Origin: Bacteroidales bacterium
GTDB lineage: Bacteria; Bacteroidota; Bacteroidia; Bacteroidales; WCHB1-69
DNA: 64,000 nt
NCBI GenBank assembly: GCA_024685175.1
Contig: JAIKWD010000021.1
Coordinates: 7,192 to 71,191 of the forward strand
Reading direction: 5' to 3'
Of this stretch, positions 18,827-37,598 are shown one piece after another. Below the pieces are notes generated by a model that did not search any database, had not been told where the DNA came from, and saw only the letters and a program-made list of their open reading frames with translations. The position numbers were made by a program, and so were the translations under genes. Position 1 is the stretch's first letter, and each line of letters opens with the position of its first letter.

Positions 18827-18989
18827 TGGAATTGTTCGTTTTTCTGTCCCATTATTTATATTGTTTTTATTATTTTTGTGGTTTGTTAAAATAAACTCCT
18901 GATAGTTCCCTTAAAGGTGCTGAAAGAGGTTTTGTTTTTTTTTTAACGAACTGTAAATTAATATATTATGGTTCTGTTTTTAATGATTA

Positions 18990-20963
18990 ATGAAAAACAA
19001 GGATAGAAAAAAGTCGCCTTTCCGGTTGAAAAACATCCAGTACAGTGCGGTCATCGTTTTCGTCATCCTCTTGATGTTGGCGGTGAACGATGGCGTGCGG
19101 CTCTACTTTGTCCGCCAGAACGCCAAGGAGACCGACCGTGAGTTGAATGCCCTGGATGAACGTGTCTCTGAGCGGCGTTTACAGCGGGAGAAACAATTGG
19201 TGGAGATTGCCGTGCAGAATTTCTCCAAGTTGGCCGAACAGTACATCAAGGACGGCTTGCCCGACAGTCTGTATTCCGTGGCCCGGATGACGTTGGAGAG
19301 CAATCTGCACATCTCCAATAGCGGCATTGCCTTCCGCCACGGCTATTTTCCCAACAAGGTCAGCGATTTTTTCTTGTTCGCCTATAGAGATACCGACACG
19401 ATTCTGACCGGTGATTACCGCACGTTGTCGTTGGACTTCTATAACCGAGATTGGTACAAAGATGCGGTGACGAAGAAGGAATCCATTTGGACGGAGCCGT
19501 ACCAGGACTACAAGTCCGGCAATTCGGTGATGACCTATGCGATGCCGTTGTGGGATCCCGATGGGGAGGTGATGGCGGTGTTTTATGCCGATATGCCTAT
19601 GACTTGGGTCAAGGAGGTGTCCGAAGTGCGGAGTACCCTTCGCCTGCAGAACGAGAAACTGCAGCATCGGCTGGTTGTTATTTCGTCGTTGCTCATCTTG
19701 GTGGATTTGCTATTGTTGGGACTCATCTTTTGGAGTGCCGTCAGGTTGTTCCAGAGTCTGCGCAAGTCCGAGGAGTCGGAGGCGCGCATTATGAGCGAGT
19801 TACGGGTGGCGGGAGATATCCAGCGCGGCTTGCTGCAGGATGCGTTTCCCGTGCGGGACGATATCGCGTGTTTTGCCACGCTGACCCCTGCGCGGCAGGT
19901 GGGCGGCGACCTGTACGATTATCATTTGCGCGACGAGAAGTTCTTCTTCTGTATTGGCGATGTTAGTGGCAAGGGCGTGCCCGCCTCGTTGATGATGGCC
20001 GTAGTCAGCAGTGCTTTCCGCACGCTGACCGACCGCCAGAGCAAGCCAGAACAGATTGTCTCCTCAATGAACAAAATCGTTATAGCCAGCAATTCAAAGG
20101 ATATGTTCGTAACCCTTTTCCTCGGCGTGCTTGATTTGCCCACGGGCCGGCTTCGTTTTTGCAACGCAGGGCAAGGCTCACCGCTCCTGTTTGTGAAGGG
20201 TGATGATGAAAAATCCGAACGTTTTGAATCAATCGAAGTGATCTCCAACCTTCCGATTGGCGTGTTGGACAACTTTGTGTTCAAGGAGCAAGAGATCCAA
20301 CTACCCGATGAGGCTTCCATCCTGTTGTATACCGACGGCCTCACGGAGGCACGAAATGCCAAAGGTGACCAATATACTGAACAACGAGTACTGGAAGTGG
20401 CGCAAAAGATCGCTCAATCCGACAATTTGACCCCGCAGAACATCATTTCAACAATGAAGAGCGAGGTGTGCCACTTTACGGGCGCCACCGAGATAAGTGA
20501 CGACCTGACAATGCTTGCGCTGCAGTATCGCAAGCCGCAGTACTCTTTCGATCGTATGCGTTCTGTTACGTTGCCTTGTGACATCAAGCACATCCCCGAA
20601 CTAAATGCCTTTGTGCAAGACGTGGCCAAGGATGCGGGGATGGAAGGGACCAGGATTAAGGATCTGCAATTGGCCGCCGAGGAACTCGTGGTCAATGCAA
20701 TGTCCTACGCCTACCCGATAGGTCGAACGGGAGACGTGTTGGTGGAGGCTTTCTGGGATGACAAAATGGTGCGCTTGCGCATCACCGACAAGGGCAAACC
20801 CTTCGATCCGACCGCCCTGCCAGAAGCCGACATCAATCTTCCCGCGGAAGAGCGTAACGTCGGCGGCTTGGGCGTCCATCTGGTCCGCATGCTTACGGAT
20901 AGCATCAACTACGAACGCATAGATGAAATGAATGTATTGACAATCAGTAAATTAATAAAATAA
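18990..20963 (+). CDS. membrane sensor fusion: periplasmic Cache-like domain, PP2C/SpoIIE phosphatase, RsbW/SpoIIAB-like HATPase kinase
   Basis: Two TM segments flank a ~190-aa extracytoplasmic region. SpoIIE motifs are QVGGDLYDY, IGDVSGKGVPASLMMA and LLYTDGLTEA. The C-terminal EELVVNAMSYAY (N box), DKGKPFDP and GGLGVHLV match anti-sigma-factor kinases. Confidence 0.8.
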   Translation: MKNKDRKKSPFRLKNIQYSAVIVFVILLMLAVNDGVRLYFVRQNAKETDRELNALDERVSERRLQREKQLVEIAVQNFSKLAEQYIKDGLPDSLYSVARMTLESNLHISNSGIAFRHGYFPNKVSDFFLFAYRDTDTILTGDYRTLSLDFYNRDWYKDAVTKKESIWTEPYQDYKSGNSVMTYAMPLWDPDGEVMAVFYADMPMTWVKEVSEVRSTLRLQNEKLQHRLVVISSLLILVDLLLLGLIFWSAVRLFQSLRKSEESEARIMSELRVAGDIQRGLLQDAFPVRDDIACFATLTPARQVGGDLYDYHLRDEKFFFCIGDVSGKGVPASLMMAVVSSAFRTLTDRQSKPEQIVSSMNKIVIASNSKDMFVTLFLGVLDLPTGRLRFCNAGQGSPLLFVKGDDEKSERFESIEVISNLPIGVLDNFVFKEQEIQLPDEASILLYTDGLTEARNAKGDQYTEQRVLEVAQKIAQSDNLTPQNIISTMKSEVCHFTGATEISDDLTMLALQYRKPQYSFDRMRSVTLPCDIKHIPELNAFVQDVAKDAGMEGTRIKDLQLAAEELVVNAMSYAYPIGRTGDVLVEAFWDDKMVRLRITDKGKPFDPTALPEADINLPAEERNVGGLGVHLVRMLTDSINYERIDEMNVLTISKLIK

Positions 20964-20969
20964 TCAAGT

Positions 20970-21269
20970 ATGACAACAACGATCACACAAGAAAACGATG
21001 CCTTGTTGGCGAAACTGGAGGGCGAATTGGACACCGCCGCCGTTACACAGGTGGAAATAGACTTCCAACCGCTGATGGAAGCCGGCAAAGACATCGTCCT
21101 GGATTGCGAGAAACTCTCCTATATCAGCAGTAGCGGCCTTCGTCTCTTCCTGAGCGTCCTGAAGAACCAGAAAGCCAAGGGCAAGAGCGTCAAGATTGTG
21201 AACCTGAGTGAAGACCTACTCCGCATTTTCAGTATGACAGGGTTTAACAAACTATTTGGACTAGAATGA
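20970..21269 (+). CDS. STAS domain anti-sigma-factor antagonist (SpoIIAA/RsbV-like)
   Basis: 99 aa. LDCEKLSYISSSGLRLFL contains the conserved phosphorylatable Ser context. The gene starts 6 nt after the upstream stop. Confidence 0.85.
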   Translation: MTTTITQENDALLAKLEGELDTAAVTQVEIDFQPLMEAGKDIVLDCEKLSYISSSGLRLFLSVLKNQKAKGKSVKIVNLSEDLLRIFSMTGFNKLFGLE

Positions 21270-22612
21270 AACCATATCTTAGACTTACGGTCCTGACAAT
21301 GGGCCTGCTCGTGTCCGTTGCTCTCTCCGCGCAAGCGCAGAATCCGGACACGATAGCATCGGACGATGTCCATTCTTTCACTATTAAGGCGGACCTGATG
21401 ACTCGTGGAGAGTTTCGCTATGGCGGTATGCAAGAGGAGGAACCGGATGTGGTAGTGAAGGAGTATGCCGCCTTTTGTATGGAGCGTGCCCGTCTTAATT
21501 TGAACTATCGGTACAAGTTCCTCACGTTGCGGCTCGCGCCCCAGCACGCAGGCGTGTGGGGACAGCAGGGTGGGGGATCCTTCCGCTTGTACGAAGGATG
21601 GGCCCGCCTGCAATCGCATCAGGGACTCTTCCTACAGGTAGGACGCCAGGCACTCAATTACGATGACCAACGTATCCTCGGCTCCGATGACTGGACGATG
21701 ACGGCGTCATCCCACGACATTCTCAAAGTCGGATATGAAGGGCACGGCCATCAGCTGCACCTGATTGCAGGCTTTAACCAAAACGGAGAGAGATTGAACG
21801 GCGGCACCTTCTACGAGAACGGTTCGCAGCCCTATAAGACGATGCAAACCCTGTGGTATCATTATGACATCCCCAAGACCGACTTCGGCTTTTCTTTGCT
21901 CTTCTTGAACGTAGGAATGCAAGCAGGAGATGCCAATTCATATCATACGAAATATCAACAATTCGCCGGCGCATTTCTTAAATATCATCCGATGAAACTG
22001 GCTTTTGAGGGTTCGTTCTATTACCAATTCGGCAAAGAAGAGCACGGCATCCCCATCTCGGCCTATATGGCCAGTGCCAAGGCCTCGTACGAGGATGAAA
22101 ATTGGGGTTTGACGGCAGGCTACGACTATCTGAGCGGTGATCCGAACTTCAACGTGCCGGCCGAAGGTATGCTCGGCCTGATTCGGCACGAAACCATCCG
22201 CGGCTTCAGCCAGTTGTTCGGTTCCCATCACAAGTTCTACGGCGCTATGGACTTCTTCTATATGCAGTCGTATGTGTACGGTTTTACACCTGGTTTGCAA
22301 AACGCTTTTGTAGCAGGACGTTACAATCCAATACCGCAAGTGGAACTTGAGGCGGCCTACCACTATATGGCCATCGCTACACAGATTGCTAACCATTCGC
22401 CCTCCTTGGGCCACGAGTTGGAACTGACGGCATCCTGGAACATCACCCCGTACATCCAATTGGTCGGCGGCTATACGTTTATGTACGGTACCGAGACGAT
22501 GGAGTTCCTTAAGCGCTCGAACCCGTCGCGACAACTGCATTGGGGATGGATGCAACTGCGCGTCAACCCGGAATTGCTCAATCTTCAACACATTAACAAG
22601 AAAAGACATTAA
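21266..22612 (+). CDS. alginate-export (AlgE-like) family outer-membrane beta-barrel
   Basis: Signal peptide ..SAQAQ. VGRQALNYDDQRILGSDDWTMTASSHD matches the GRQ-x-L...DW motif of the Alginate_exp family, with alternating aromatic strands to the C-terminus. The start overlaps the STAS stop (ATGA). Confidence 0.6.
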   Translation: MKPYLRLTVLTMGLLVSVALSAQAQNPDTIASDDVHSFTIKADLMTRGEFRYGGMQEEEPDVVVKEYAAFCMERARLNLNYRYKFLTLRLAPQHAGVWGQQGGGSFRLYEGWARLQSHQGLFLQVGRQALNYDDQRILGSDDWTMTASSHDILKVGYEGHGHQLHLIAGFNQNGERLNGGTFYENGSQPYKTMQTLWYHYDIPKTDFGFSLLFLNVGMQAGDANSYHTKYQQFAGAFLKYHPMKLAFEGSFYYQFGKEEHGIPISAYMASAKASYEDENWGLTAGYDYLSGDPNFNVPAEGMLGLIRHETIRGFSQLFGSHHKFYGAMDFFYMQSYVYGFTPGLQNAFVAGRYNPIPQVELEAAYHYMAIATQIANHSPSLGHELELTASWNITPYIQLVGGYTFMYGTETMEFLKRSNPSRQLHWGWMQLRVNPELLNLQHINKKRH

Positions 22613-22624
22613 TAGCATTTTGAT

Positions 22625-23900
22625 ATGAAACAAACCTTCCCTCTTTCATCGTCCCAACTTGGCATTTTTGCCGTTTGTAATGACCATAAAGGCGAGATTT
22701 GTTACAACCTGCCGTTCTGCTTCGGCTTTGACGGCTCTTTGGATGGCGAACGCCTACGTCAGGCCGTGATGGCCTATGTGTACGCGCATCCGATACTGTT
22801 CGCCCGGATAGGGATGAACGACGAAGGAGAACCGCTGATGACTCTCGACCTGGATAATGAGCAATGGGACCTTGAAATGGAAGAGGTGGCGGACATCGAG
22901 GCTGAGAAAGCCGCCTTCCCGAAGCCGTTCGATATCGTAGGCGACCGCCTGTTCCGTATGCGTTTGTTGCACTGCGGCGACCATTTCTATTTGCTGACCG
23001 ACATTCACCATCTGATTAACGATGGCTCTTCGCACCATAATATGTTGCACGACTTCGAGGTCGCTTATGATGGCGAGACGCTTGCCCCGGAGGAGTTGAC
23101 CCTGATGGATGTGGCTCGTGCCGAGGTCGAGCTGAAGAAATCGCCGGCATTTGAGGAGGGAAAGAAGTGGTACGCCCAACATTTTGATTGCGGCGATATC
23201 TCGACGGAACTTCTCCCGGACATTGAGGGTCCGGTGCATTACGATGCCATCAAAAACAGGGTCCTGCAGACCAAATTGGAGGATGTTGATGCCTTTTGCC
23301 GTGCAAAAGGCATCTTCAAGAGCACTTTCTTCACAGCGGCGTATGCCTTCCTGTTGGCCAAGTATGTCGGAGACAAGGAAACACTGTTCAATACCGTCTA
23401 CAATGGTCGTACCGACAAACGGCTTGCCCATTCACAGGGTATGTTTGTCAAGACGCTGCCGATATATCTCAAATTTGACAACGACACTACGGCGTTGAAG
23501 CTGATGCAGGATTGCCAGCAACTCATCGCCGACAGTCGGGAACACGACGTGTACTCCTATCGTGACATTGCCCACGATTTGCAGTTGCAGATTGCCACCG
23601 ACTTCGTCTGGCACGGGATGATACTCAGCGACATCAAGTTCGCCGGGAAACCGATGACTGCCGATTTTATCGGCGTGGAGACGCACATCTCGCCCTTCTA
23701 TATGCGGGCGTACCTCCAGGACGGACACGTCTGTCTGGATGTAGAATATAGTGCCGACAAGTATTCCCTGGCCTTTGTCGACCAAATTATGGAGAGTTAC
23801 GAAGCCGTGGTGGACGGATTCCTCGTCTGTGATTACTTGCGGGATATTGATATCACCACGAAATCCCAATTGGCTCTGCTCGATGGCTTTAACGCCACAG
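22625..23900 (+). other. NRPS domain C1 (N-terminal starter-type condensation domain)
   Basis: HHLINDG at 23006-23026. The domain precedes the first A domain with no upstream carrier domain. Confidence 0.7.
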
Positions 23901-26900
23901 ATGTGCCTTACGACGACACACAGACCATCGTTTCGCTCTTCCGCGCCCAGGCGCAAAAGACGCCCGACAACCTGGCCGTCGTCTTCAAGGACAAACAGTA
24001 TACCTACAAGGAAATGGATGAGATCTCCGACCGGATTGCGGCCTTCGTCTCATCCAAGGGATTGGGAAGAGAGGATGTGGTGTCGGTGTTGATACCGCGT
24101 TGCGAATGGATGGCCGTCGCCTCGATGGGCATCTTGAAGGCCGGCTGTGCCTATCAGCCCCTAGATCCTACGTATCCTTCCGAACGGTTGAACTTTATGA
24201 TGAAGGATGCCAATGCCAAACTGTTGGTCGCTGATGAGGAACTGCGTCCTATTGTCAATGAGTACGAAGGGGAGGTGCTGTTTACCAAGGACATTGTCGG
24301 CTTGCCCGACTCTCCCGCCCCGAAGGTGGAGGTCAAACCGGAAGACTTGTTCATTATGCTGTATACCAGCGGCTCCACAGGCGTGCCCAAGGGTTGCCAG
24401 TTGATACATAGCAACTTGGTATGCTTCTGTCATTGGTACCAGCGTTACTACGGCTTGCTTCCCGAGCACAATGTGGCGGCCTACGCCTCATACGGCTTCG
24501 ATGCTTGTATGATGGATATGTACCCGGCTCTGACCGGAGGTGCGACAATACACATCGTGCCCGAAGAGATCCGCCTCGACTTGATTGCTCTCAATGACTA
24601 TTTCGAGCAGAACCATATCACCCATTCCTTTATGACCACGCAGGTGGGCTTCCAGTTTGCCACGACCATTGAGAATCACTCTTTGCAGCATCTCTCCGTC
24701 GGCGGCGAGAAATTGGCCTCTTTGGCACCGCTGGCCAAAGGACTACTGCACAACGGCTACGGCCCGACCGAGTGCACGATCTTCACCACCACCTATCCCG
24801 TGCGGGAAACGCTCAAGAACATCCCTATCGGCAAGCCGGTGGACAATATGCACTTGTATGTCGTCGATTCGCAAGGCCATCGTCTCCCCGTGGGTGCCTC
24901 GGGCGAGCTGTGCATTGCCGGCCCGCAAGTGAGCCGCGGCTATCTGAACCGTCCGGAGAAGATGGCTGAGGTGTTCGTGCCCAATCCGTACGAGACCAGT
25001 CCAAAATACGCCCGTATGTATCGATCGGGCGACATCGTGCGCTATCTGCCCGACGGCAACATCCAATTCGTGGGCCGTCGCGACGCGCAGGTCAAGATTC
25101 GCGGTTTCCGCATTGAGCTGACCGAAGTGGAAGGCATTATTCGTCAATATCCCGGCATAAAGGATGTTACGGTGCAGGCCTTCGACGAGGAAGGCGGCGG
25201 CAAGTTCATCGCCGCATACATCGTCAGCGACCAACAAATCGACATAGAGGCCCTCAACCAGTTCATTATGGAGGAGAAACCGCCCTATATGGTGCCTGCC
25301 GTCACGATGCAGGTCGAAGCCATACCGCTGACCCAGAACCAGAAAGTCAATAAACGCGCCCTGCCTAAGCCTGAGAAAAAAGCCGCCGTGGAGGAAGTGT
25401 CCAATGCGCCCTTGAACGTACTCGAGCAACAAATCAAGGAGATGGTCGCCGGCGTCGTGGGCCACAAGGACTTCGGCATCACCACCGTGCTAGGCTATGC
25501 AGGGCTGACCTCGATATCCGCCATCAAGTTGGCTGTACATATCAACAAGACATTCAATGTGGCATTGGATGCCAAGTCATTGGTGAAGAAAGGCACCGTT
25601 CAGAGTATTGAGAATGAAATTTTGTCAAAACTTCTGAATCCAGATGCGAATGTAATAGCGAGTAATGTGGCTACGGAAACGGCGACAGCCACCACGTGTG
25701 AACTGAGTTATGCCCAAACCGGCGTCTATTTCGATTGCTTGAAAAATCCGCTGTCCACAATCTATAACATGCCGATGAAAATCGGCTTCCCCATTGATGT
25801 CGATACGGAGAAGCTGGCTGCTGCCGTGCGGCAATTGGTGATTATCCACCCCCAGTTGACGGTCAGCATCGGCAACGAGGGCGGCAACGCCGTACAGACC
25901 ACCCATCCCGACATCGAGATTGACATTCCCGTTGTGCAGATGAGCGAAGAGGAGTTGAAAATCACCAAGCAGGACTTTGTGAAGCCTTTCAACCTGAAGC
26001 AAGCCCCGCTGTGCCGTTTCCAAATCGTGAAGACGGAGAAGGGCGTCTATCTGCTTTCCGATATGCATCATCTGGTCTCCGATGGCGGCTCATACGACTT
26101 GTTCATCAATCAGTTATGCGATTTGATGGAGGGCAAGGAGGTGGATGTCGAGCAGATGAACTATGCTTCGTATGTGGAGGCCGAGAAGGAAGCGGAAAAG
26201 ACTGAGACATACGCCGAAGCCAAGCGTTTTTTCCACGATCAACTCTCGATGGTGGACGGCGTTACGGAACTGACCTCCGACCTGACCAATCCGCATGCCA
26301 ACGGAACCACGAGTTGTGTAGCCGCCCCGTTCGACTGGCAGGCCGTCAACGAGTTCTGCCGCAAGCAGGGCATCACGCCAGCGCACCTTACGTTGGCGGC
26401 GGTCTATTACGTGCTTTCGCGCTTCGCCAATGCGGAGGATGTCTGCATCACCACCATCAGTAGTGGCCGTAGCAATTTGGGCATCCAAAGCACCGTGGGT
26501 ATGTTTATCAACACATTGGCGCTCAGTGCGAAGGTCGGTCAACAACCCGTGCTTGATTTTATCCGCGAAACGCGCGACAAGTTCGATGCGACTCTCTTGC
26601 ACGAGAACTATCCGTTTGCACAGATTGCCGCCGACTATGATCTCTCCGCCGAGATAATGTTTGCCTACCAGATGGGCGTGCTGAACCATTATTACCTTCA
26701 AGGCAAGGAAGTGGATGTCGAAAGCCTGGAGTTGGATGTGCCCAAGTTCCCCATCGCCTTCTATGTACGAGAAGAAGACGGGAAACCCAGCGTGGCAGTG
26801 GAGTATGACAATGGTCGATACAGCGAAGGGATGATGCGAGAGATAGCCAAGTCGGTAGCCAACGTGACCAAGGCGTTCATTGCAAAACCAGACGCTATGT

Positions 26901-29900
26901 TGGAGAGCATCTCACTTTTGGATGACACGCAAGCCCAGGAGTTGGATGGCTTCAACCAAACGGCCGTTCCCTATGATGATACGCAGACCATCGTTTCCCT
27001 GTTCCGAAAAGCCGTAAAAGAACACCCCGACAACACCGCGGTTGTCTATACGGACAAGATATTCACTTATCGGGATGTAGATGATATCACGGACCGTATT
27101 GCCGCGTATGTCGTCTCCAAGGGTCTGGGACGCGAGGATGTGGTGTCCGTGCTGATTCCTCGTAGCGAGTGGATGCCCATAGCCTCTTTGGGCGTGCTCA
27201 AGGCCGGCTGCGCCTATCAGCCCCTTGACCCGTCGTATCCGGCAGAGCGACTGAACTTTATGATGAAAGACGCCAACGCCAAGTTGCTGATTGCCGATGC
27301 GGAACTTCGTCCCATCGTGGATGAATATACAGGTGAGGTGTTGATGACCAAAGACATCGCCGCCTTGCCGCAGCGTCCGGCACCGCAGGTGGAGGTTAAG
27401 CCTAACGACCTGTTCATCCTGCTCTACACCTCGGGCTCTACCGGAACGCCGAAGGGCTGCCAGTGGGAGCACCGCAACATTGTGGCCTTCTGCCATTGGT
27501 ACCAACGCAAGTTTGCCCTCGATGCCGGTTGCCGCGTGTCGGCGTATGCTTCCTACGGCTTCGACGCCTGCCAGATGGATATGTATTCCGCGCTGACTTG
27601 CGGAGCGGCCGTCTACATCATCTCCGAAGACATCCGTCTCAACCTGCCTGAGTTGAGTCGCTATTTTGATGCTATGCAGATCACGCACGCTTTTATGACC
27701 ACGCAGATTGCCTACCAGTTTGCCACGACACAACAGTGTCATAGTCTGCATTATCTCTTGACGGGTGGCGAGAAGCTGGCGTCGCTAACGCCGCCGGAGG
27801 ACTATACGCTGGTCAACATCTACGGTCCGACGGAGACGACCATCTGCATCACCACGTTCGAGGTAAAGGAGATCTTGCAGGATATCCCTGTCGGCAAGGC
27901 CCTTGACAACCTTCAGCTCTATGTCGTGGACCATTGTGGCAATCGTTTGCCCGTGGGTGCGGCCGGCGAGTTGTGGGTGTCCGGTCCGCAGGTGAGCCGC
28001 GGCTATCTCAACCGTCCGGAGAAGACCGCCGAGACCTACATTGCCAATCCGTTCGGCCCGGGCGTCGTCTATCGCACTGGCGACATTGTGCGTTTCCAGC
28101 CCGACGGCAACGTCCAGTTCGTAGGTCGTCGCGACGGACAGGTCAAGATTCGCGGCTTCCGCATTGAACTCAAAGAGGTGGAAGCCGTTATTAGACAATT
28201 TCCTGATGTTAAAGATGTTACCGTGCAGGCCTTCGATTATGAGAAGGGCGGCAAGTACATCGCAGCGTATGTTGTGGGCGACAAGGAAATCGACGTGCCC
28301 GTGCTCAACCAGTTCATTGCACGACAAAAACCATCCTATATGGTGCCAGCTGCCACGATGCAGATCGACGCCATCCCGTTGAACCAGAACCAGAAGGTGA
28401 ACCGCAAGGCGTTGCCCGCGCCGGTCATCAATGCCGCGGATCGCGAATACGTGGCGCCGAGCAACGACCTTGAGAAGTTGTTCTGCGAAATCTATGCCTC
28501 TATCTTGGCATTGGATAAGGTGGGTGCCACCGACAACTTCTTCGATTTGGGCGGCACTTCGCTGATGGTGACGCGCGTTATCATCGAAGCCGACAAGGCG
28601 GGGCATCACGTGGCCTATGGCGACCTCTTTGACCATCCTACGCCAAGACTTCTGGCCTCTCTCATCACGGGTGGTGCGGTCGGCGAGTCCAAGTCCGAGA
28701 ACCCCATTGCCGATTACGACTACACCGCCATCCACGAGACGCTGAAGGGCAATACGCTTGACGCGTTCCGCCAGGGCGAGCGCCAGTCGTTGGGCAACGT
28801 GCTTTTGACCGGCGCTACCGGATTTCTCGGCATTCACGTGCTCAACGAACTGATCCATTCCGATGCCCCGAAGATCTACTGCCTGGTGCGTGGAAAAGGG
28901 GAGGAGGATGCCCGAAAACGTTTGCAGACCCTGTTGTTCTACTATTTCGATACATCTTTCAACGAAGAACTTGAGTCCGGACGTCTCAACGTCGTGTGCG
29001 GGGATGTGACCGCCGATTTCGGCCCTGCCCTGGTCGATGCGTCCATCCAGACCGTCTTCAACTGCGCGGCTATTGTGAAACATTTCTCGAAGGGCACGGA
29101 GATTGAGGATGTCAACATCGGCGGTGCGGAACGCTGCGTGCAGTTCTGTCTCCAGACCGGCGCCCGTCTGGTACACATCTCCACCTATAGTACCGCCGGA
29201 CTCTCTGTGAACGGAAATCCCGAGCCCGGCACCATCCAGACCGAGCAGGTCCTGTATTACGGACAGTTTATGGACAATGCCTACATCAACTCCAAGTTCA
29301 TCGCCGAGCGTATCGTCTTGGAGGCGATGGCAAGTCAAGGACTGGGTGCGAAGGTGATGCGTGTGGGCAACCTGTCGCCGCGCTCCACGGATGGCGAGTT
29401 CCAAATCAACTTCCAGACTAACAGTGCGATGGGACGTGTGCGGGCCTTCCGCATCTTGGGCGGCTATGCGTATGAGAACAGCGACGACCCGATGGAGTTC
29501 TCGCCCATCAATGAGGTGGCGGCATCCATTGTGGCCCTGAGCGCCACGCCGAAGCCGTGTTGCCTGTTCCATCCCTATAACAACCATTTCGTCCATTTCG
29601 GCGATGTGATGAACGAGTTGAGTGTCATCGGCCCCGCTCCGGCGCAAATGGAGGCGGCCGAGTTCGAAGCACGGCTCAACGCGGTGAAGGACGACCCACA
29701 GAAGGCCAAGTTCCTCTCCAGTCTGCTGGCCTACCAGGATATGGCTCACGGCCAGAAGTCAACGATGATCCCCACGGCCAACACCTACACCACGCAGGTA
29801 TTGTACCGACTTGGCTTCCACTGGTCCACCACATCCTGGGACTACATTGACAAATTCCTTACCGCCATCGACGGTTTGGGCTACTTTGACGAATCCTTGG

Positions 29901-29905
29901 AATAA
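22625..29905 (+). CDS. bimodular nonribosomal peptide synthetase, C-A-T-C-A-T-R
   Basis: 2426 aa. Two HHxxxDG motifs, two LYTSGSTGxPKGC (A3) motifs, two YGPTE(C/T)T (A5) motifs, two carrier-protein Ser motifs, and a terminal LLTGATGFLG Rossmann plus YINSK reductase. Confidence 0.95.
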   Translation: MKQTFPLSSSQLGIFAVCNDHKGEICYNLPFCFGFDGSLDGERLRQAVMAYVYAHPILFARIGMNDEGEPLMTLDLDNEQWDLEMEEVADIEAEKAAFPKPFDIVGDRLFRMRLLHCGDHFYLLTDIHHLINDGSSHHNMLHDFEVAYDGETLAPEELTLMDVARAEVELKKSPAFEEGKKWYAQHFDCGDISTELLPDIEGPVHYDAIKNRVLQTKLEDVDAFCRAKGIFKSTFFTAAYAFLLAKYVGDKETLFNTVYNGRTDKRLAHSQGMFVKTLPIYLKFDNDTTALKLMQDCQQLIADSREHDVYSYRDIAHDLQLQIATDFVWHGMILSDIKFAGKPMTADFIGVETHISPFYMRAYLQDGHVCLDVEYSADKYSLAFVDQIMESYEAVVDGFLVCDYLRDIDITTKSQLALLDGFNATDVPYDDTQTIVSLFRAQAQKTPDNLAVVFKDKQYTYKEMDEISDRIAAFVSSKGLGREDVVSVLIPRCEWMAVASMGILKAGCAYQPLDPTYPSERLNFMMKDANAKLLVADEELRPIVNEYEGEVLFTKDIVGLPDSPAPKVEVKPEDLFIMLYTSGSTGVPKGCQLIHSNLVCFCHWYQRYYGLLPEHNVAAYASYGFDACMMDMYPALTGGATIHIVPEEIRLDLIALNDYFEQNHITHSFMTTQVGFQFATTIENHSLQHLSVGGEKLASLAPLAKGLLHNGYGPTECTIFTTTYPVRETLKNIPIGKPVDNMHLYVVDSQGHRLPVGASGELCIAGPQVSRGYLNRPEKMAEVFVPNPYETSPKYARMYRSGDIVRYLPDGNIQFVGRRDAQVKIRGFRIELTEVEGIIRQYPGIKDVTVQAFDEEGGGKFIAAYIVSDQQIDIEALNQFIMEEKPPYMVPAVTMQVEAIPLTQNQKVNKRALPKPEKKAAVEEVSNAPLNVLEQQIKEMVAGVVGHKDFGITTVLGYAGLTSISAIKLAVHINKTFNVALDAKSLVKKGTVQSIENEILSKLLNPDANVIASNVATETATATTCELSYAQTGVYFDCLKNPLSTIYNMPMKIGFPIDVDTEKLAAAVRQLVIIHPQLTVSIGNEGGNAVQTTHPDIEIDIPVVQMSEEELKITKQDFVKPFNLKQAPLCRFQIVKTEKGVYLLSDMHHLVSDGGSYDLFINQLCDLMEGKEVDVEQMNYASYVEAEKEAEKTETYAEAKRFFHDQLSMVDGVTELTSDLTNPHANGTTSCVAAPFDWQAVNEFCRKQGITPAHLTLAAVYYVLSRFANAEDVCITTISSGRSNLGIQSTVGMFINTLALSAKVGQQPVLDFIRETRDKFDATLLHENYPFAQIAADYDLSAEIMFAYQMGVLNHYYLQGKEVDVESLELDVPKFPIAFYVREEDGKPSVAVEYDNGRYSEGMMREIAKSVANVTKAFIAKPDAMLESISLLDDTQAQELDGFNQTAVPYDDTQTIVSLFRKAVKEHPDNTAVVYTDKIFTYRDVDDITDRIAAYVVSKGLGREDVVSVLIPRSEWMPIASLGVLKAGCAYQPLDPSYPAERLNFMMKDANAKLLIADAELRPIVDEYTGEVLMTKDIAALPQRPAPQVEVKPNDLFILLYTSGSTGTPKGCQWEHRNIVAFCHWYQRKFALDAGCRVSAYASYGFDACQMDMYSALTCGAAVYIISEDIRLNLPELSRYFDAMQITHAFMTTQIAYQFATTQQCHSLHYLLTGGEKLASLTPPEDYTLVNIYGPTETTICITTFEVKEILQDIPVGKALDNLQLYVVDHCGNRLPVGAAGELWVSGPQVSRGYLNRPEKTAETYIANPFGPGVVYRTGDIVRFQPDGNVQFVGRRDGQVKIRGFRIELKEVEAVIRQFPDVKDVTVQAFDYEKGGKYIAAYVVGDKEIDVPVLNQFIARQKPSYMVPAATMQIDAIPLNQNQKVNRKALPAPVINAADREYVAPSNDLEKLFCEIYASILALDKVGATDNFFDLGGTSLMVTRVIIEADKAGHHVAYGDLFDHPTPRLLASLITGGAVGESKSENPIADYDYTAIHETLKGNTLDAFRQGERQSLGNVLLTGATGFLGIHVLNELIHSDAPKIYCLVRGKGEEDARKRLQTLLFYYFDTSFNEELESGRLNVVCGDVTADFGPALVDASIQTVFNCAAIVKHFSKGTEIEDVNIGGAERCVQFCLQTGARLVHISTYSTAGLSVNGNPEPGTIQTEQVLYYGQFMDNAYINSKFIAERIVLEAMASQGLGAKVMRVGNLSPRSTDGEFQINFQTNSAMGRVRAFRILGGYAYENSDDPMEFSPINEVAASIVALSATPKPCCLFHPYNNHFVHFGDVMNELSVIGPAPAQMEAAEFEARLNAVKDDPQKAKFLSSLLAYQDMAHGQKSTMIPTANTYTTQVLYRLGFHWSTTSWDYIDKFLTAIDGLGYFDESLE
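23905..25365 (+). other. NRPS domain A1 (adenylation)
   Basis: LYTSGSTGVPKGC at 24359-24397, plus YGPTECT, GELCIAGPQVSRGYLNRPE, YRSGDIVRY, and VKIRGFRIEL...NQKVNKRALP. Confidence 0.8.
25400..25620 (+). other. NRPS domain T1 (carrier protein; slightly atypical Ser motif GYAGLTSISAIKL)
   Basis: Ser motif near 25502-25530, in the position expected between A1 and C2. Confidence 0.6.
25690..26950 (+). other. NRPS domain C2 (condensation)
   Basis: MHHLVSDGGS, with HHLVSDG at 26066-26086. Confidence 0.75.
26966..28417 (+). other. NRPS domain A2 (adenylation)
   Basis: LYTSGSTGTPKGC at 27422-27460, plus YGPTETT, GELWVSGPQVSRGYLNRPE and NQKVNRKALP. Confidence 0.8.
28450..28665 (+). other. NRPS domain T2 (carrier protein)
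   Basis: FFDLGGTSLMVTRV, with the canonical GGxS near 28538-28570. Confidence 0.8.
28790..29902 (+). other. NRPS terminal thioester reductase (R) domain
   Basis: VLLTGATGFLGIHVLNELI (28802-28831) NAD(P)-binding motif. YINSKFIAE is the SDR-type Y-x-x-x-K. Confidence 0.8.
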
Positions 29906-30495
29906 TGCTCTACATCAACGACCATGTTGAAACTCTGGATTGGCAGGCGCATCTCTCGGAGTTGCCTGCCGCCCGCCAGGAAAAATGCCTGCGTTATCTG
30001 AAAGAAGAATCCCGTCGGCAATGCGTGGCCGCGTGGCTGTTGCTGCGCGATGCCCTGGAAAGCCAATACGGTCTCAAAGAGGTGCCGGAAATAGCCTATA
30101 TGCCTGATGGTAAGCCCTATTTCCCGAAAAGGCCGGATATTCATTTCTCCCTCAGTCACTGTTCCAAGGCCGTGGCTTGTGCGCTTGGCGACCGCCCGGT
30201 TGGCGTGGATGTGGAGCGCATACGGACCTATGATGACGAAGTGGCCGCCTATGTCCTGAACGATGCAGAGTTGGAACATGTGCGTAGCGCTGACAATCCC
30301 GCCTTGGAGTTTACCAAAATCTGGACGCAAAAAGAGAGCTGTCTGAAACTTACCGGCGAAGGCCTGACACGTGACCTGAAAGAAATCCTGACACAGTACA
30401 AAGTGGATTTTCAGACAAGCGTGGAACTTGAGAAGGGATACGTGTGCACCGAAGCGGTGGAATCGGTGATAATTCATAAGACGAAGAGAATCTAG
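29905..30495 (+). CDS. 4'-phosphopantetheinyl transferase (Sfp type)
   Basis: 196 aa. FSLSHC, VGVDVERI and WTQKESCLKLTGEGL are the three PPTase motifs. The ATG overlaps the NRPS stop (TAATG). Confidence 0.85.
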   Translation: MLYINDHVETLDWQAHLSELPAARQEKCLRYLKEESRRQCVAAWLLLRDALESQYGLKEVPEIAYMPDGKPYFPKRPDIHFSLSHCSKAVACALGDRPVGVDVERIRTYDDEVAAYVLNDAELEHVRSADNPALEFTKIWTQKESCLKLTGEGLTRDLKEILTQYKVDFQTSVELEKGYVCTEAVESVIIHKTKRI

Positions 30496-30504: not shown

Positions 30505-31905
30505 TTATTTCCTAATTCCCTCCATCCACTCTGTGATGATTTCCAGTGCTTTAGGTTGGATGGTCTCCTCTATGGCGCCGTACTCTTCTGGGCTGCCAGT
30601 AGTGCAGGTCTGGAGCAGGTGGTTGGCGTTCTCCAAGACTACGAACTTGTGGTTTCTGTTCTTTGGTAAATATTTGGCGAACAGTTGGTTGTTGGCCACG
30701 GCGTCCACTTGTAGGTCTTTCTCTCCCCCAATGGCTAGAACCGGACATCTCATCTTCTTGATGTAGGATTTTGGGTTGAAACGGATGAAGTTGAAAAACC
30801 AGGGTGAGGACATCTGGCTGGCCTGTGCCCTGCGGTTTTCAAGGGTCATCCCGTACCTTTCTTGTTCTTCCGCGGTCAGCTTCTCGGCAAGGCGGTCCAT
30901 TGTCTGTCGGAGCACGGCGGCGGCCTGTTTGGGGTCTTTGGTCTTGCCCACGGCCCGATAGACGGCATCCGACAGGACCACGGAGTTGTCGATCTCCTCG
31001 GGCGTGAGTTTGCCGGAGACCTCGTTGATGGCGCGGACTTGGTACAGCAAGACATCGGTGTTCTTTTGCGCCACGCCGCCTATCGTGACGACGAATTGCA
31101 CGCGTTTGTCGCGGGCGGCCACGATTTCGGCCACTTGACTGCCCTCGCTATGGCCGAGGAGCCCGGTGGTCAGTGGCGCAAGATCCTGCCGGCGTGAAAA
31201 AGAGTCCAGAATCATCACAACTCCATCGGCGAAGTCGAAGGTCGTGGACTTGGTGAACACGGCTTGTGGATAGTCGTCGTAGCGGAACACGGCGTAGCCG
31301 TTGCGGGTGAGATGGTCGGCGATGACCTGGAACGGCTTGTGTCCCATAAGCGTCTCGTCACGGTCCTGCCATCCAGAGCCCGTGATGAGAATGACCAATG
31401 CCTTGGGCGTGCCCTCCGGCATCGTGAGCGTGCCGTTGATGAGGTTGTAGCGGCCGCCTTTCTCCTTGATGCCGATCTCTTCTTCCCGATACGGATATGG
31501 AGGCTGAGGCGTTTGCGGACGATTGATGGTCTTGCGCTCGTGCCCACGTTCCAAGGTTAACGGCAGACTCTTGTTGAACTGTTTGAGGGTGCCTGCGATG
31601 TGCTTTCCGTCGGCGGCCAGCCGACCCGTGAAGGCGGCGCTGATGTCCGCCACGCTCCATTTCAGCGTGCTGTCCTGCCAACTGCTGCTGGTGGCGGGGA
31701 TGTCCATTGTATATTGGTCTGGACTGTCCAAGGACAGCTGCAAGGAGTCGCCGTCTTGCTCCATCCATAAACCGATGGTGAGCGAGTCGCTCGGCGTGAT
31801 ACGGAGCATGCCTTCCCAATATCCGGTGATGTCTTGCGCAGAAACGATTGAACACATCAGGACGAGGACGACGACCGATAATAGTTGTCGGGTGCTATTT
31901 CTCAT
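30505..31905 (-). CDS. secreted alpha/beta hydrolase (S9/S33-like serine hydrolase)
   Basis: Signal peptide. Nucleophile elbow LLGHSEGSQVA. An N-terminal ~130-aa extra domain. Confidence 0.7.
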   Translation of the reverse strand: MRNSTRQLLSVVVLVLMCSIVSAQDITGYWEGMLRITPSDSLTIGLWMEQDGDSLQLSLDSPDQYTMDIPATSSSWQDSTLKWSVADISAAFTGRLAADGKHIAGTLKQFNKSLPLTLERGHERKTINRPQTPQPPYPYREEEIGIKEKGGRYNLINGTLTMPEGTPKALVILITGSGWQDRDETLMGHKPFQVIADHLTRNGYAVFRYDDYPQAVFTKSTTFDFADGVVMILDSFSRRQDLAPLTTGLLGHSEGSQVAEIVAARDKRVQFVVTIGGVAQKNTDVLLYQVRAINEVSGKLTPEEIDNSVVLSDAVYRAVGKTKDPKQAAAVLRQTMDRLAEKLTAEEQERYGMTLENRRAQASQMSSPWFFNFIRFNPKSYIKKMRCPVLAIGGEKDLQVDAVANNQLFAKYLPKNRNHKFVVLENANHLLQTCTTGSPEEYGAIEETIQPKALEIITEWMEGIRK

Positions 31906-32368
31906 AGTTGTTCCACAATAGGGTTAAGGATGGATACGATTCTTGCATCTTGCTGTCCACATCGGCAATGGGCACCCATACGGCCTCGGAGATGTCTTCT
32001 ATGGTCTGCGGTGTGAGAGCCTGCTTGGGGGCGCTCATCTTGTACCAATGCGTCTCTTTGAGTATGGGCTCGCCGCGCAACTCGTATGTGTGGAATGTGC
32101 TGGGCAACGGCTCTCCAAGCATGATGTCGCGCAACCCCGTCTCTTCTTCCACCTCGCGAACGGCCGTCTCGTCGTATTGCTCGCCTTCTTCCACCTTGCC
32201 CTTGGGAAAATCCCATTTCCCGAGGCGGTGTATCATCAAAATCTCGTCTTCGTCGTTGCGAACGATACCTCCCGCGGCGTGTATGATGCGATAATCTGTT
32301 GTGAATTGCTCGAATTCCGCTTTGCTGTTGATTTCTATGGGCTCGTTGTTCTTGAAGATGAGAATCAT
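31895..32368 (-). CDS. NUDIX hydrolase
   Basis: Nudix box: GKWDFPKGKVEEGEQYDETAVREVEEETG. Confidence 0.85.
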   Translation of the reverse strand: MILIFKNNEPIEINSKAEFEQFTTDYRIIHAAGGIVRNDEDEILMIHRLGKWDFPKGKVEEGEQYDETAVREVEEETGLRDIMLGEPLPSTFHTYELRGEPILKETHWYKMSAPKQALTPQTIEDISEAVWVPIADVDSKMQESYPSLTLLWNNYEK

Positions 32369-32379
32369 ATCGATGAGTT

Positions 32380-34599
32380 TTAATGTGTGCTTTTGATCAA
32401 TTTTGTCCTGTAGGAATGATTGATTTCAAGGATATATAATCCGTCGGGTAAATGGCTGATGTCAAGATGGCGGCTGCCATATCGAGCCAATATCTGTCCT
32501 GCGAGGTTGTACACGATGACTGTTTTGACTTCACCGTCGGGGTAATCGATGTCAATAGGTCCGTTTGTGGGATTGGGACTCAGCGTTGCCGGACTATAAG
32601 TGTGCTCGGAAATGCCGGCGGGGTGGTTGGCGGGAGCGCGTCCTTTCAGGTAGGTGAGGCCTCCGGCATAATTGCCGGCTATGAGGTCGGGATAGGCGTC
32701 CTCACCAAGGTGTGCGATGGCGGGAGCCACTCGTCGCCCATCTTTGAAGGGAATAGCGCAATGTTGGCAGGTCTCGTCTTCATTGTCCCACACTACACCG
32801 GATAGCGTGAATGTACCGTATAAATTGTTATCAATGTTCTTGTAACAGAAAACATATCCACGATCACTACCACAAAACAGGACGGTGCCGTTCAAAGTAT
32901 CGCTATAAAAACACGGGACACTGTAACCGAAATAGGACTGTTCGTGGTCGCATACATCAACCTGCCCCAAGTTATCGGTAATGAGTTCAAATCTATGTGG
33001 ACTGCAGGCCGTGATGTTACGGTAGTAATACAATTTTCCTTCTTGGTTGCCGATAATTAAATCCGTTCTCCTATCATAATCAAGGTCAAAAAGGGTAGGG
33101 GTGCTGTATTTTCCCACATCGATTTCTTGATAGTTCTCGATGAAAAAATCCGATTCGGAGGCGATTCTTTCGTGCGGGATGAGCAGTAGGGTACCGTCTT
33201 CTTGCCCACAGACCATATCGGTCCTGGAATCCCCGTAGAAAGAGCCAAATGATGGATGCAACGCTTTGATGTTTAGTTCTTTAAGATGGCCAAAATCGTC
33301 ATCGGCCAATTCAAATGCAGGTTGTTGGCTGCTGCCTACGTTGTGGTAGTATCGTATGGATGAGGAGAAGGATGATTGAACAAATCCATTCACGACGTTT
33401 GCGCTGTCGAAACTACCGTAGTTGGCTACAAAGAGGTCCAAAAGTCCGTCTCCGTCCCAGTCGAAGAACACAGGATGGCTGCCGCTGCCCATGTCAATCA
33501 TGTCTTCTTGGAGGAAGGCGGTGTTGACGAGCGTGTATTGTTGCAGGGTGGTGTCGAAATCATAACGCCACACGCTATTGAGGTCTTGAGACTTGGCGAG
33601 GGCGGGGTCGGAGGGCGAGGCGATGAGGGAAGGACGCACTTGTCCGGGCAGTTGCACGAGAGAAGGGGCTGGCATAGAGTAGAGGTGAACCGGTGCTCCG
33701 GCGGGAAACAACGTGTCCATCATCGTCATCCGTGCCTCTTCGCCAGTGCCGTGGTTGTAGAGCATGGCGAGGTTCGGAGCATCGATGTCGCCCACCAGAA
33801 TGTCGGGCAGACCGTTGTCATCGAAGTCGTGCAGTAGCATTGACGACCCCACGTGGCGAGTATGCCCGTCATCGCTTTTCTCCCCACAGTCGGAGAACAA
33901 CGTGATGGCATTGCCGTCGGCGGCCTCTTCAAAATGGCCCCAACACTCGGACTCCAACCGGAAATCGAATTGTCCGGGCTGCGTGGCGTAGTTGCGGAGA
34001 TAGTGGACGTATTTTCCCAAAACCCAGAAGTTCAGGATGTCCACGTGCCCGTCACCGTCCACGTCTTCCACCACGATGTAGTCGTCGGGCGAGGCGTAGA
34101 TGTTGACATAGCCGTTGTAATAGAACGCCTGCAGTTGGTCGGTGACCAGTTCGAACTCCAATTGTGTGTCGGAGATATTATGGAAAACGCGTATCCCGGC
34201 CAATCCGTAGGTGAAAATGTCGGGCTTGCCGTCGTTGTCGTAGTCCTGTAGAATGGCCCAGTCGTGCAGTTCGGGAAACCTGCGAGCGTATTCGGGAGCA
34301 AATAGGTACTTGTCTCCACGACGCAGGAAAGTGAGCGCGCGGTTGCCATGTTTCTCGAAGGCGAAAAGGTCTTTGTTACCATCCCGGTCAAGGTCGATTT
34401 CGGACAGACGGATGCCGTTGATGCCGCCACCCCAGGCATTTGCCAGGGAGTCTCCATCTGAAAAGACTGGTGTGGATGGATTGCGAAAGAAACTATAGTC
34501 GTCGGTCACTTCTTGTGCGCATACGTAGTGTGCAAGGCACAATGAAAGCAAAAACGGGATGACGAACTTAAAGGGACTCATAGCACGATTATCTGACAC
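32380..34599 (-). CDS. FG-GAP/VCBS repeat protein with T9SS C-terminal sorting domain
   Basis: Repeated D-x-D-x-D-G-x-x-D motifs (DLDRDGNKDLF, DYDNDGKPDIF, DVDGDGHVDIL, DFDDNGLPDIL, DWDGDGLLDLF). The C-terminal LSPNPTNGPIDID...LPDGLYILEI is CTD-like. Confidence 0.7.
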   Translation of the reverse strand: MSDNRAMSPFKFVIPFLLSLCLAHYVCAQEVTDDYSFFRNPSTPVFSDGDSLANAWGGGINGIRLSEIDLDRDGNKDLFAFEKHGNRALTFLRRGDKYLFAPEYARRFPELHDWAILQDYDNDGKPDIFTYGLAGIRVFHNISDTQLEFELVTDQLQAFYYNGYVNIYASPDDYIVVEDVDGDGHVDILNFWVLGKYVHYLRNYATQPGQFDFRLESECWGHFEEAADGNAITLFSDCGEKSDDGHTRHVGSSMLLHDFDDNGLPDILVGDIDAPNLAMLYNHGTGEEARMTMMDTLFPAGAPVHLYSMPAPSLVQLPGQVRPSLIASPSDPALAKSQDLNSVWRYDFDTTLQQYTLVNTAFLQEDMIDMGSGSHPVFFDWDGDGLLDLFVANYGSFDSANVVNGFVQSSFSSSIRYYHNVGSSQQPAFELADDDFGHLKELNIKALHPSFGSFYGDSRTDMVCGQEDGTLLLIPHERIASESDFFIENYQEIDVGKYSTPTLFDLDYDRRTDLIIGNQEGKLYYYRNITACSPHRFELITDNLGQVDVCDHEQSYFGYSVPCFYSDTLNGTVLFCGSDRGYVFCYKNIDNNLYGTFTLSGVVWDNEDETCQHCAIPFKDGRRVAPAIAHLGEDAYPDLIAGNYAGGLTYLKGRAPANHPAGISEHTYSPATLSPNPTNGPIDIDYPDGEVKTVIVYNLAGQILARYGSRHLDISHLPDGLYILEINHSYRTKLIKSTH

Positions 34600-35545
34600 G
34601 CAGGCGCTGGCCTTCGCGGATAAAGTCGCTTCTGAGACGATTGAGCTTTTTGAGTTTGGAGACAGTAGTGTGATACTTGGCGGCTATTCGACCCAGGTTG
34701 TCGCCTTTACGAACGCGGTAATAAGCCACTGAATGTTGAGGTTTGGGCGGGGCTGCTTGTGTAGGGTCATTCTGTACGGGGGTGGGAGTGGATACGCTGT
34801 ATCCAGACACGAACATCGTATCGAATTTCAAACAGAAGTTGTCGAAATCCACCAGTCGGTTGGGGTTGATGTCTTGGCCGAGATAGCGTATCTCATAGTG
34901 AAGGTGTGGACCAGTTGAGCGACCAGTACTTCCTCCCAGACCGATAATATCGCCAGCATGAACCATCTGTCCTGGGTTAACGAGACGACGGGAGAGGTGT
35001 GCGTAGTAGGTCTCCAGCCCATTGTCGTGGCGGATGACGATGAGGTTGCCGTAGCCGCCAGTGTTGCTGCCTTTGGAAATGCGCACTTGACCGTCCCAGG
35101 TGGCTGCGACTGGCGTGCCGGTGGGATAGCCGAGGTCGACACCACGGTGCATTCTGCGGTGTCTCCACCCGTAATCTGATGTCTTCTTGAAGTTGGCTGG
35201 ATGATGGTAGCCTGCCAACAATACAGTGTCGCGTGGAGCAGATCCTATGTGTTTGTAATGAATGCGGATGATGTCGAAATTTTGGTATAGATTGTAGCCG
35301 GGCATCCAGTTGAAATAGGTGAACAACATGCCATCGCCATGGTCGACGTTATCCAATGAAGCCAAATCCTCGTCGTCAATGCTCTCACCTAATGTATCCT
35401 CGGGTATGGTCGAGTCAATACGGACAGTGTCGTTAACTACGCTGAATTGTATATGGTTTTCCTGGGCCTTTGCGATGTTTGCAAAGAAGATAATAGCAGA
35501 TAATAATACTATATGTATAGTAATTCGAAGATTGTTCATTGGCAA
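34589..35545 (-). CDS. M23 family metallopeptidase with C-terminal LysM domain
   Basis: HRGVDLGYPTGTPV and GSTGRSTGPHLHYEIR (M23). YYRVRKGDNLGRIAAKYHTTVSKLKKLN (LysM). Confidence 0.85.
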   Translation of the reverse strand: MPMNNLRITIHIVLLSAIIFFANIAKAQENHIQFSVVNDTVRIDSTIPEDTLGESIDDEDLASLDNVDHGDGMLFTYFNWMPGYNLYQNFDIIRIHYKHIGSAPRDTVLLAGYHHPANFKKTSDYGWRHRRMHRGVDLGYPTGTPVAATWDGQVRISKGSNTGGYGNLIVIRHDNGLETYYAHLSRRLVNPGQMVHAGDIIGLGGSTGRSTGPHLHYEIRYLGQDINPNRLVDFDNFCLKFDTMFVSGYSVSTPTPVQNDPTQAAPPKPQHSVAYYRVRKGDNLGRIAAKYHTTVSKLKKLNRLRSDFIREGQRLRVR

Positions 35546-37594: not shown

Positions 37595-37598
37595 TATT

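Follow-up and report, generated by a model that had tools for sequence, protein, structure and literature searches.

What does a compact nonribosomal peptide synthetase (NRPS) of a rumen Bacteroidales bacterium make, how is its peptide chain started and released, and what might control it? These questions are raised by a gene in a 64,000-nucleotide (nt) stretch of DNA from the Bacteroidales assembly GCA_024685175.1 (contig JAIKWD010000021.1, positions 7,192 to 71,191), which we call the window and in which all positions below are counted. A preliminary description, made by reading the sequence, had proposed that the gene encodes a synthetase with the domain order C-A-T-C-A-T-R (C, condensation; A, adenylation; T, carrier; R, reductase) and that its product is an N-acyl dipeptide aldehyde. 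We find that the architecture and the nearest relatives of the protein fit the reductive release of a dipeptide, whereas its N-terminal condensation domain (C1) fails the sequence test for a canonical starter domain. That the enzyme releases some reduced, dipeptide-derived molecule is very likely; for the specific product, an N-acyl dipeptide aldehyde, we would put the probability at about 0.5. The synthetase gene also belongs to an operon in which genes for a putative sensory switch and a candidate export channel lie directly 5′ of it, a context that the preliminary description had overlooked.

A two-module synthetase with a terminal reductase

The synthetase is encoded by a single open reading frame (ORF; 22625-29905, forward strand) of 7281 nt that, according to the ORF listing and its translation, begins with ATG and specifies 2426 amino acids (aa). 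Pfam detects two Condensation, two AMP-binding, two AMP-binding_C and two PP-binding domains in the order C-A-T-C-A-T-R, followed at the C terminus (residues 2059-2300) by NAD_binding_4/Epimerase, of which NAD_binding_4 exceeds the Pfam cut-off. The domain order proposed earlier is borne out by Pfam and by a motif map, in which every motif quoted for it was found at the expected place. The two analyses agree that a pair of A-T modules, linked by a C domain, is present on one polypeptide (Table 1).

The terminal domain is a reductase of SDR (short-chain dehydrogenase/reductase) type, with a TGxxGxxG Rossmann motif and the catalytic Tyr/Lys pair. Its best solved relative is the didomain of peptidyl carrier protein and reductase from Mru_0351 (6VTJ; 214 bits, E = 2.6e-62), with the whole R domain aligned. 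Second best, and the closest that has been functionally characterised, is the reductase of AusA from Staphylococcus aureus (AusA-R, 4F6C; 112 bits). Tyr2220, Lys2224 and the NAD(P)H motif align with both structures. TIGR01746 scores 144 bits on this domain, under its cut-off of 213.35 bits. AusA-R releases an aldehyde (PMC8210680). Mru_0351 is a protein of the rumen archaeon Methanobrevibacter ruminantium (PMC8024701) and thus shares the habitat of our synthetase and, likewise, has no known product; it is an archaeal and larger NRPS, and the comparison with the window protein extends over the terminal didomain only. That the structure nearest to R comes from an archaeal rumen NRPS hints at NRPS parts common to different domains of life in the rumen.

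The two A domains are 68% identical to each other, and for both the closest solved domain is the first A domain of LgrA, which activates Val. A1 and A2 each have Asp235 and Lys517, so that the substrates of both should be alpha-amino acids. We read the specificity codes (Table 1) from a MAFFT alignment to GrsA-PheA, with code position 301 anchored to the first G of GGE; for the GrsA-PheA reference segment, the alignment returned the canonical code, DAWTIAAICK. Hydrophobic or small residues line the pockets, with Ser299 of A1 as the exception, and because of this lining two hydrophobic residues are our best guess for what A1 and A2 load. Closest to C2 are the TycC and LgrA LCL domains, and Pfam finds no epimerization domain in the protein, so that an L,L-dipeptide is expected.

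The preliminary description had also called the motif of the first carrier (T1) atypical. The deviation is real, although it is the norm of the family and not an oddity: in each of ten proteins that were motif-mapped (10/10), GLTSI occurs on internal T domains and GGTSL on the T domain that precedes R. GLTSI is a GxxS motif like that of acyl carrier proteins (ACPs), with the serine intact, and T1 is on average 63% identical across 92 relatives. We rejected the idea of a defective carrier, given that the motif is typical of the family and the serine is retained.

Several lines of evidence show that the gene is no assembly artefact. Public data contain a protein of equal length that is 99% identical to the synthetase; 20 metagenome runs from the guts of ruminants (bovine, sheep and goat) contain 36-82% of the 31-mers of the gene; and contigs from a bovine metagenome (run X1) tile it at an identity of at least 95%. 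A megablast search of Escherichia coli genomes gave no match. One low-depth contig of run X1 joins position 28033 back to position 25280, an in-frame distance of 2754 nt or 918 codons. This junction has just 33 nt on its short side, and it could be a chimera of the 68%-identical A domains or could derive from a strain with a duplicated module. Long antisense ORFs within the gene (for example, 27785-29749, reverse strand) were rejected as genes: they are mechanical, lying opposite a conserved coding frame.

A position-specific N-terminal condensation domain

Relatives of the synthetase are encoded in 406 stretches recovered by a scan of a genome collection, which correspond to around 400 species-level genomes. 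The best 80 of the 406, referred to here as the related loci, are nearly all from metagenome-assembled genomes (MAGs) of the rumen or ruminant gut that are labelled Prevotella, Prevotellaceae, Bacteroidaceae, Muribaculaceae or Bacteroidales. Most of these are 50-65% identical to the window synthetase, and two reach 80%. A survey of rumen genomes has counted, but did not characterise, 934 NRPS clusters in Bacteroidaceae (PMC8241843).

We examined family anatomy in the window protein together with its 120 best homologues. In this set, 93 proteins are C-A-T-C-A-T-R synthetases of 2400-2500 aa and 10 are C-A-T-C-A-T-C-A-T-R, while 13 three-module and 5 four-module proteins start directly with an A-T module. 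The longer variants measure approximately 3490 aa (C-start, three modules), 3010-3100 aa (A-T-start, three modules) and 4070 aa (A-T-start, four modules), and all of them end in R. The 93 two-module members carry 33 distinct pairs of A1 and A2 codes, and the pair found in the window is common only to its 99%-identical twin. The A1 code of the window protein is the second commonest A2 code of the family, a match that suggests shuffling of modules or subdomains.

When the C domains were scored with C1 and C2 as queries, all 103 N-terminal domains proved to be of the C1 type and all 154 domains that follow a T domain to be of the C2 type. Within the window protein itself, C1 and C2 are only 27.5% identical. 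His128, His129 and Asp133 of C1 are invariant in 35 species, among which the domain is approximately 50% identical, and Gly134 is nearly so. The median identity of C1 (50%) is close to that of C2 (55%), indicating similar constraint. As members of a clade that is confined to the N terminus, with an invariant HHxxxD motif and a level of conservation near that of C2, domains of the C1 type are probably catalytic, and we regard C1 as probably a working enzyme tied to chain initiation. With a conserved core that begins at residue 4, C1 lacks a docking extension. Like starter (Cs) domains, C1 lies at the N terminus without an upstream carrier and has an intact HHxxxDG motif.

If C1 acylates the first residue, an acyl donor has to be supplied. 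When each domain of the NRPS served as a phmmer query against every ORF of 50 aa or more in the window (64 kb), no further homologue of A, C, T or R was retrieved, in agreement with the earlier statement that no acyl-CoA ligase or free ACP is encoded nearby. At the 80 related loci, the extra matches were second NRPS genes or fragments, at a few loci, and unlinked ligases of a housekeeping type that lie 5-10 kb away, at 4 loci. We considered an acyl-CoA ligase 5 kb downstream in one 80%-identical locus (L057) and rejected it, as it is not conserved and is absent from the window. With no ligase or carrier nearby, the donor, should C1 acylate, would be an acyl-ACP or acyl-CoA from primary metabolism.

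A conserved operon with a putative partner switch and export channel

The synthetase gene occupies the fourth place in a tight five-gene operon (18990-30495) that encodes, in order, a membrane sensor, a STAS protein, an outer-membrane barrel, the NRPS and a 4′-phosphopantetheinyl transferase (PPTase). The STAS gene begins 6 nt 3′ of the sensor gene and shares an ATGA overlap with the barrel gene; 12 nt separate the barrel and NRPS genes; and the PPTase gene starts on the final base of the stop codon of the NRPS gene (TAATG). By these junctions, the three upstream genes and the PPTase gene are translationally coupled to the NRPS gene. The spacer 5′ of the operon is 163 nt long with a GC content of 25%, and it holds a candidate promoter element of the form TAnnTTTG, which occurs only 17 times on the forward strand of the window.

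The adjacent PPTase noted in the preliminary description is present, as an ACPS/Sfp-type ORF, and gives the cluster a dedicated Sfp-type enzyme that could prime Ser963 of T1 and Ser1979 of T2. A homologue is detectable in 19 of the 80 related loci, at variable positions.

In the sensor, hydrophobic segments at residues ~17-35 and 228-250 flank the Cache-like domain, and the phosphatase and kinase domains are matched by Pfam (SpoIIE, E = 1e-46; HATPase_c_2, E = 1e-22). The STAS protein carries a phosphorylation-type motif, Ser54-Ser-Gly-Leu-Arg, in which Ser54, Gly56, Leu57 and Arg58 are invariant in an alignment of 22 orthologues. Three components of a partner-switching system are therefore encoded: a PP2C phosphatase, a HATPase_c_2 kinase and a STAS protein in which a phosphorylatable serine is conserved. 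The Alginate_exp family is matched by 19 of 20 barrel orthologues (best E = 5e-12), and a profile search of the PDB with the barrel found no relative.

We assessed synteny in 72 related loci, those with 4 kb or more of sequence upstream. The sensor gene is upstream of the NRPS gene and on the same strand in 53 loci and the STAS gene is upstream in 57; the two occur together in 52. The barrel gene is directly upstream of the NRPS gene in 38 loci, and 36 loci have all three. For the output partner of the switch, what we observe is synteny with the NRPS and barrel genes and nothing else. The five-gene operon contains no sigma factor.

SypE/SypA and RsbU/RsbV/RsbW are partner-switching modules, and SypE/SypA control the synthesis of a polysaccharide. 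Like them, the window genes encode a PP2C phosphatase together with an RsbW-type serine kinase, as well as a STAS protein that has a conserved phosphorylatable serine, and the window sensor resembles SypE in joining kinase and phosphatase on a single polypeptide. They differ from these modules in that the input domain is periplasmic and Cache-like, the operon lacks a sigma factor and the module is linked to an NRPS. By analogy with SypE/SypA, we infer that the sensor and the STAS protein may control the synthetase or the channel post-translationally. The searchable literature contained nothing on partner switching linked to an NRPS. In run X12, which carries the label RNA-Seq, coverage is even across genes and spacers, and the run is probably DNA.

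Comparison with known synthetases

The family that the NCBIfam models name first is that of the aureusimine synthetase: AusA is the best name for C1, C2 and R, and AusB that for the PPTase. These scores are far under the equivalog cut-offs (AusA, NF047350: 78-166 bits for the domains versus 2500; AusB, NF047349: 72 bits for the PPTase versus 225), so that the window synthetase is no AusA orthologue and the relationship is one of resemblance only. AusA and AusB of S. aureus share with the window genes a dimodular NRPS, reductive release and a PPTase gene directly 3′ of the synthetase gene. AusA, however, is A-T-C-A-T-R without an N-terminal C domain, and its products cyclise to pyrazinones, whereas the window synthetase has C1.

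A second comparison is with synthetases of gut anaerobes. Guo et al. 2017 (Cell 168:517) reportedly described a gut-bacterial NRPS family that makes dipeptide aldehydes and pyrazinones and includes N-acyl members, and Schneider & Balskus 2018 are said to have described ruminopeptin from Ruminococcus bromii. The preliminary description had invoked such a family of reductase-ended synthetases, and reviews confirm that gut bacteria have a family of NRPS-derived dipeptide aldehydes, some of them with N-acyl tails (PMC8210680, PMC12327764). The N-acyl tails stabilise the aldehyde, and ruminopeptin is among the gut products (PMC8210680, PMC12327764, PMC10039858). Likened by architecture, these synthetases and the window protein are small, come from anaerobic, host-associated bacteria and consist of two A-T modules and a terminal reductase, to which an N-terminal C domain may be added; relatives of C1 occur among the C domains of R-terminated NRPSs of Lachnospiraceae. 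The window gene differs in its source, a rumen Bacteroidales bacterium and thus another phylum, and in its association with a partner-switching pair and an AlgE-like barrel.

Proposed pathway and alternatives

In the pathway that we favour, the primed carriers T1 and T2 would be loaded with residue 1 by A1 and residue 2 by A2. C1 would acylate the amino group of residue 1, with acyl-ACP or acyl-CoA from primary metabolism as the donor thioester, C2 would form the L,L-dipeptidyl thioester, and R would free the N-acyl dipeptide aldehyde using one NAD(P)H. As its amine is blocked, such an aldehyde could not cyclise to a pyrazinone. The AlgE-like barrel would pass the product across the outer membrane, and the PP2C/kinase with its Cache sensor would, together with the STAS protein, toggle production or export according to an external cue, in SypE/SypA fashion. 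The electrophilic aldehyde would then inhibit cysteine or serine proteases in the rumen community, reversibly and through a covalent bond.

A number of observations weigh against this pathway. Against the PDB (structure identities from PMC10510592), the profile of the C1 family scores highest with the LCL domain of TycC (139.5 bits) and bacitracin synthase 3 (137.9 bits), followed by LgrA (~90 bits) and PvdL (88 bits), and reaches just 38 bits with RzmA-Cs and 29 bits with CDA-C1, which are lipo-initiation domains. By these profile scores, C1 does not group with characterised Cs domains in preference to LCL or DCL domains. Outside the family, its nearest relatives, taken from a library of 1.8 billion representatives and rescored per domain (summed scores favoured proteins with several C domains), include internal C domains of Lachnospiraceae NRPSs: residues 597-1028 of an A-T-C-A-T-C-A-T-R protein from that family score 234 bits with C1, compared with approximately 150 bits for the C2 domain of its own protein. 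The label 'starter-type' given to C1 in the preliminary description hence stands as far as position and conservation are concerned, but not as a statement about clade, where the best profile matches are elongation LCL domains. Clustering with non-starter C domains, which that description had named as counter-evidence, is at least in part what the profile scores and the internal Lachnospiraceae domains reveal. C1 looks like an elongation-type domain that was recruited to the N terminus. The folds of C domains are too alike to tell the subtypes apart.

Further points on the same side concern substrates, donor, release and control. The A1 and A2 codes match no assignable code, position 278 reading F or M owing to a one-residue indel, and no linked acyl-activating gene is found at any of the 80 related loci. 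The extent of reduction by R domains is not predictable from sequence (PMC8024701). Sensor, STAS and barrel genes are all missing from 13 of the 72 loci, and the regulatory link of the sensor and STAS protein to the synthetase is one of synteny alone. A bovine metatranscriptome (X25) yields few, short and low-depth contigs on the sensor and NRPS genes, compared with pyrG and a symporter gene; as evidence for transcription of the operon, these contigs are a hint. All relatives whose source could be named are MAGs, with no cultured carrier among them. The searchable literature reports no product for any member of the family, and holds nothing relevant on peptide aldehydes of Prevotella or Bacteroidales.

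The characterised lipo-initiation domains (RzmA-Cs, 7C1H; CDA-C1, 4JN3; PMC10510592) are similar to C1 in their N-terminal position, in having no preceding carrier and in the HHxxxDG motif, and we propose them as its functional analogues for N-acylation. C1 differs from them in forming a clade of its own with weak sequence similarity to them (38 and 29 bits, versus 139 bits for the TycC LCL domain). This distance leaves room for the view that C1 does not acylate at all, in which case a free dipeptide aldehyde would cyclise by itself to a (dihydro)pyrazinone, as do the aureusimines and the products of most gut members, and could serve as a signal in addition to being an inhibitor. Such an outcome would agree with AusA as the nearest named family, with the lack of acyl-donor genes in the window and at the 80 loci, and with the departure of C1 from canonical starters, and a signalling product would suit both the species specificity of the code pairs (33 among 93) and the linked sensor. 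We nevertheless think it unlikely, because an HHxxxD motif that is invariant in 35 species, in a domain conserved nearly as well as C2, argues against an idle domain; moreover, relatives that lack C1 begin with a full A-T module, not with nothing.

Conversely, C1 might be active as a true elongation domain that accepts an aminoacyl, peptidyl or aryl donor from a carrier encoded elsewhere, as in EntF or MxcG, and the product would then be a longer or differently capped peptide aldehyde. The profile proximity to LCL domains and the internal C domains among the nearest outgroup relatives are in keeping with this, as is an NCBIfam match between C1 and the N-terminal C domain of MxcG. Yet no partner is encoded within 64 kb or at the 80 loci, C1 has no N-terminal docking extension, and domains of its type never follow a T domain, where the relatives that start with an A domain use the C2 type; we consider this possibility quite improbable. 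Release raises a separate alternative, namely that R performs a four-electron reduction and ends with an (N-acyl) dipeptide alcohol in place of an electrophilic aldehyde. Alcohol-forming R domains of the MxaA and mycobacterial (Mtb) types are also detectable homologues, and, as noted above, sequence does not reveal how far reduction proceeds. Among the matched solved R domains of known product, the scores nonetheless place R closer to the aldehyde-releasing AusA-R than to either alcohol-forming domain (MxaA, 69 bits; Mtb-R, 43 bits), and the gut members characterised so far give aldehydes (PMC8210680, PMC12327764), which makes an alcohol an unlikely end point. An N-acyl dipeptide aldehyde remains the product that we favour.

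Features of the window

The coordinates of the synthetase, its domains and the other operon features are given in Table 1. Downstream of the operon and on the reverse strand (30505-35545) are genes for an alpha/beta hydrolase (secreted, EstD-like), a NUDIX hydrolase, an FG-GAP repeat protein of 739 aa that has a C-terminal sorting domain of the type IX secretion system and an M23 peptidase with LysM. This sorting domain and the related loci assign the window to Bacteroidales. None of these genes is conserved beside the NRPS gene in the 80 related loci. We rejected the alpha/beta hydrolase, NUDIX and FG-GAP genes as members of the cluster on account of their opposite strand and their conservation in 0 of 80 loci. 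Farther along, the forward strand encodes both subunits, alpha (TIM-barrel) and beta (B12-binding), of D-lysine 5,6-aminomutase, an enzyme of lysine fermentation (35975-38387), followed by gyrB (38425-40404). A full-length bacterial RNase P RNA of class A (Rfam RF00010, 273 bits) is encoded at 49915-50253 on the forward strand, and no tRNA genes were found across the whole 64-kb window.

Table 1. Features of the synthetase operon, with positions in the window.
Feature	Position	Strand	Description
Candidate Bacteroidetes-type -7 box	18871..18878	+	TATTTTTG = TAnnTTTG, consensus match
Membrane sensor, 657 aa	18990..20963	+	Transmembrane segment, dCache-like periplasmic domain, transmembrane segment, PP2C (SpoIIE), RsbW-like kinase (HATPase_c_2); Pfam, NCBIfam
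STAS anti-sigma-factor-antagonist-type protein, 99 aa	20970..21269	+	Pfam; TIGR00377, 72 bits, above cut-off
AlgE/Alginate_exp outer-membrane beta-barrel, 448 aa, candidate exit channel	21266..22612	+	Pfam, 31 bits, above cut-off; signal peptide
NRPS gene	22625..29905	+	2426 aa, C-A-T-C-A-T-R; Pfam and motif map
C1, N-terminal condensation domain	22625..23920	+	Residues 1-432; HHLINDG at residue 128; position-specific clade
A1 adenylation domain	23942..25399	+	TSGSTGVPKG at 581; NGYGPTE at 710; code DAM[F/M]SGGIFK
T1 carrier	25427..25639	+	GLTSI at 960; Ser963 (codon 25511-25513)
C2, elongation condensation domain, LCL-like	25670..26983	+	HHLVSDG at 1148
A2 adenylation domain	27002..28450	+	TSGSTGTPKG at 1602; NIYGPTE at 1731; code DAM[F/M]LGIICK
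T2 carrier	28481..28666	+	GGTSL at 1976; Ser1979 (codon 28559-28561)
R, terminal thioester reductase (SDR)	28799..29902 (wider span 28745-29902)	+	TGATGFLG at 2062; YINSK at 2220 (Tyr2220/Lys2224)
Sfp-type PPTase, 196 aa	29905..30495	+	Pfam ACPS and AASDHPPT_N

Significance

The evidence so far makes the synthetase itself an ordinary representative of a class already known. The parts that could be new are the conserved module of sensor, STAS protein and barrel, and the initiating C domain derived from an LCL domain. A broader and doubtful proposal is that these parts form a self-contained module for sensing, making and exporting a compound in hundreds of species of rumen Bacteroidales, in which the Cache sensor, its phosphatase and kinase and the STAS protein would gate the NRPS post-translationally, the LCL-derived C1 would cap a species-specific dipeptide with an acyl group drawn straight from primary metabolism and the dedicated barrel would export the reactive aldehyde. 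If this were true, it would represent a new mode of NRPS control and a new evolutionary route to lipo-initiation, and the products would make up a family of diverse protease inhibitors or signals in the rumen.

The small NRPSs with a terminal reductase that gut anaerobes carry are among the few families of microbiome products with a defined, host-relevant activity (the inhibition of cathepsin and other proteases), and the related family described here is very common in rumen Bacteroidales, with many predicted dipeptides. The context of sensor, STAS protein and barrel provides a testable handle on when silent clusters are switched on, which is the usual obstacle to product discovery. Protein breakdown in the rumen limits the nitrogen efficiency of ruminants, which would make a widespread family of secreted protease inhibitors or signals of interest.

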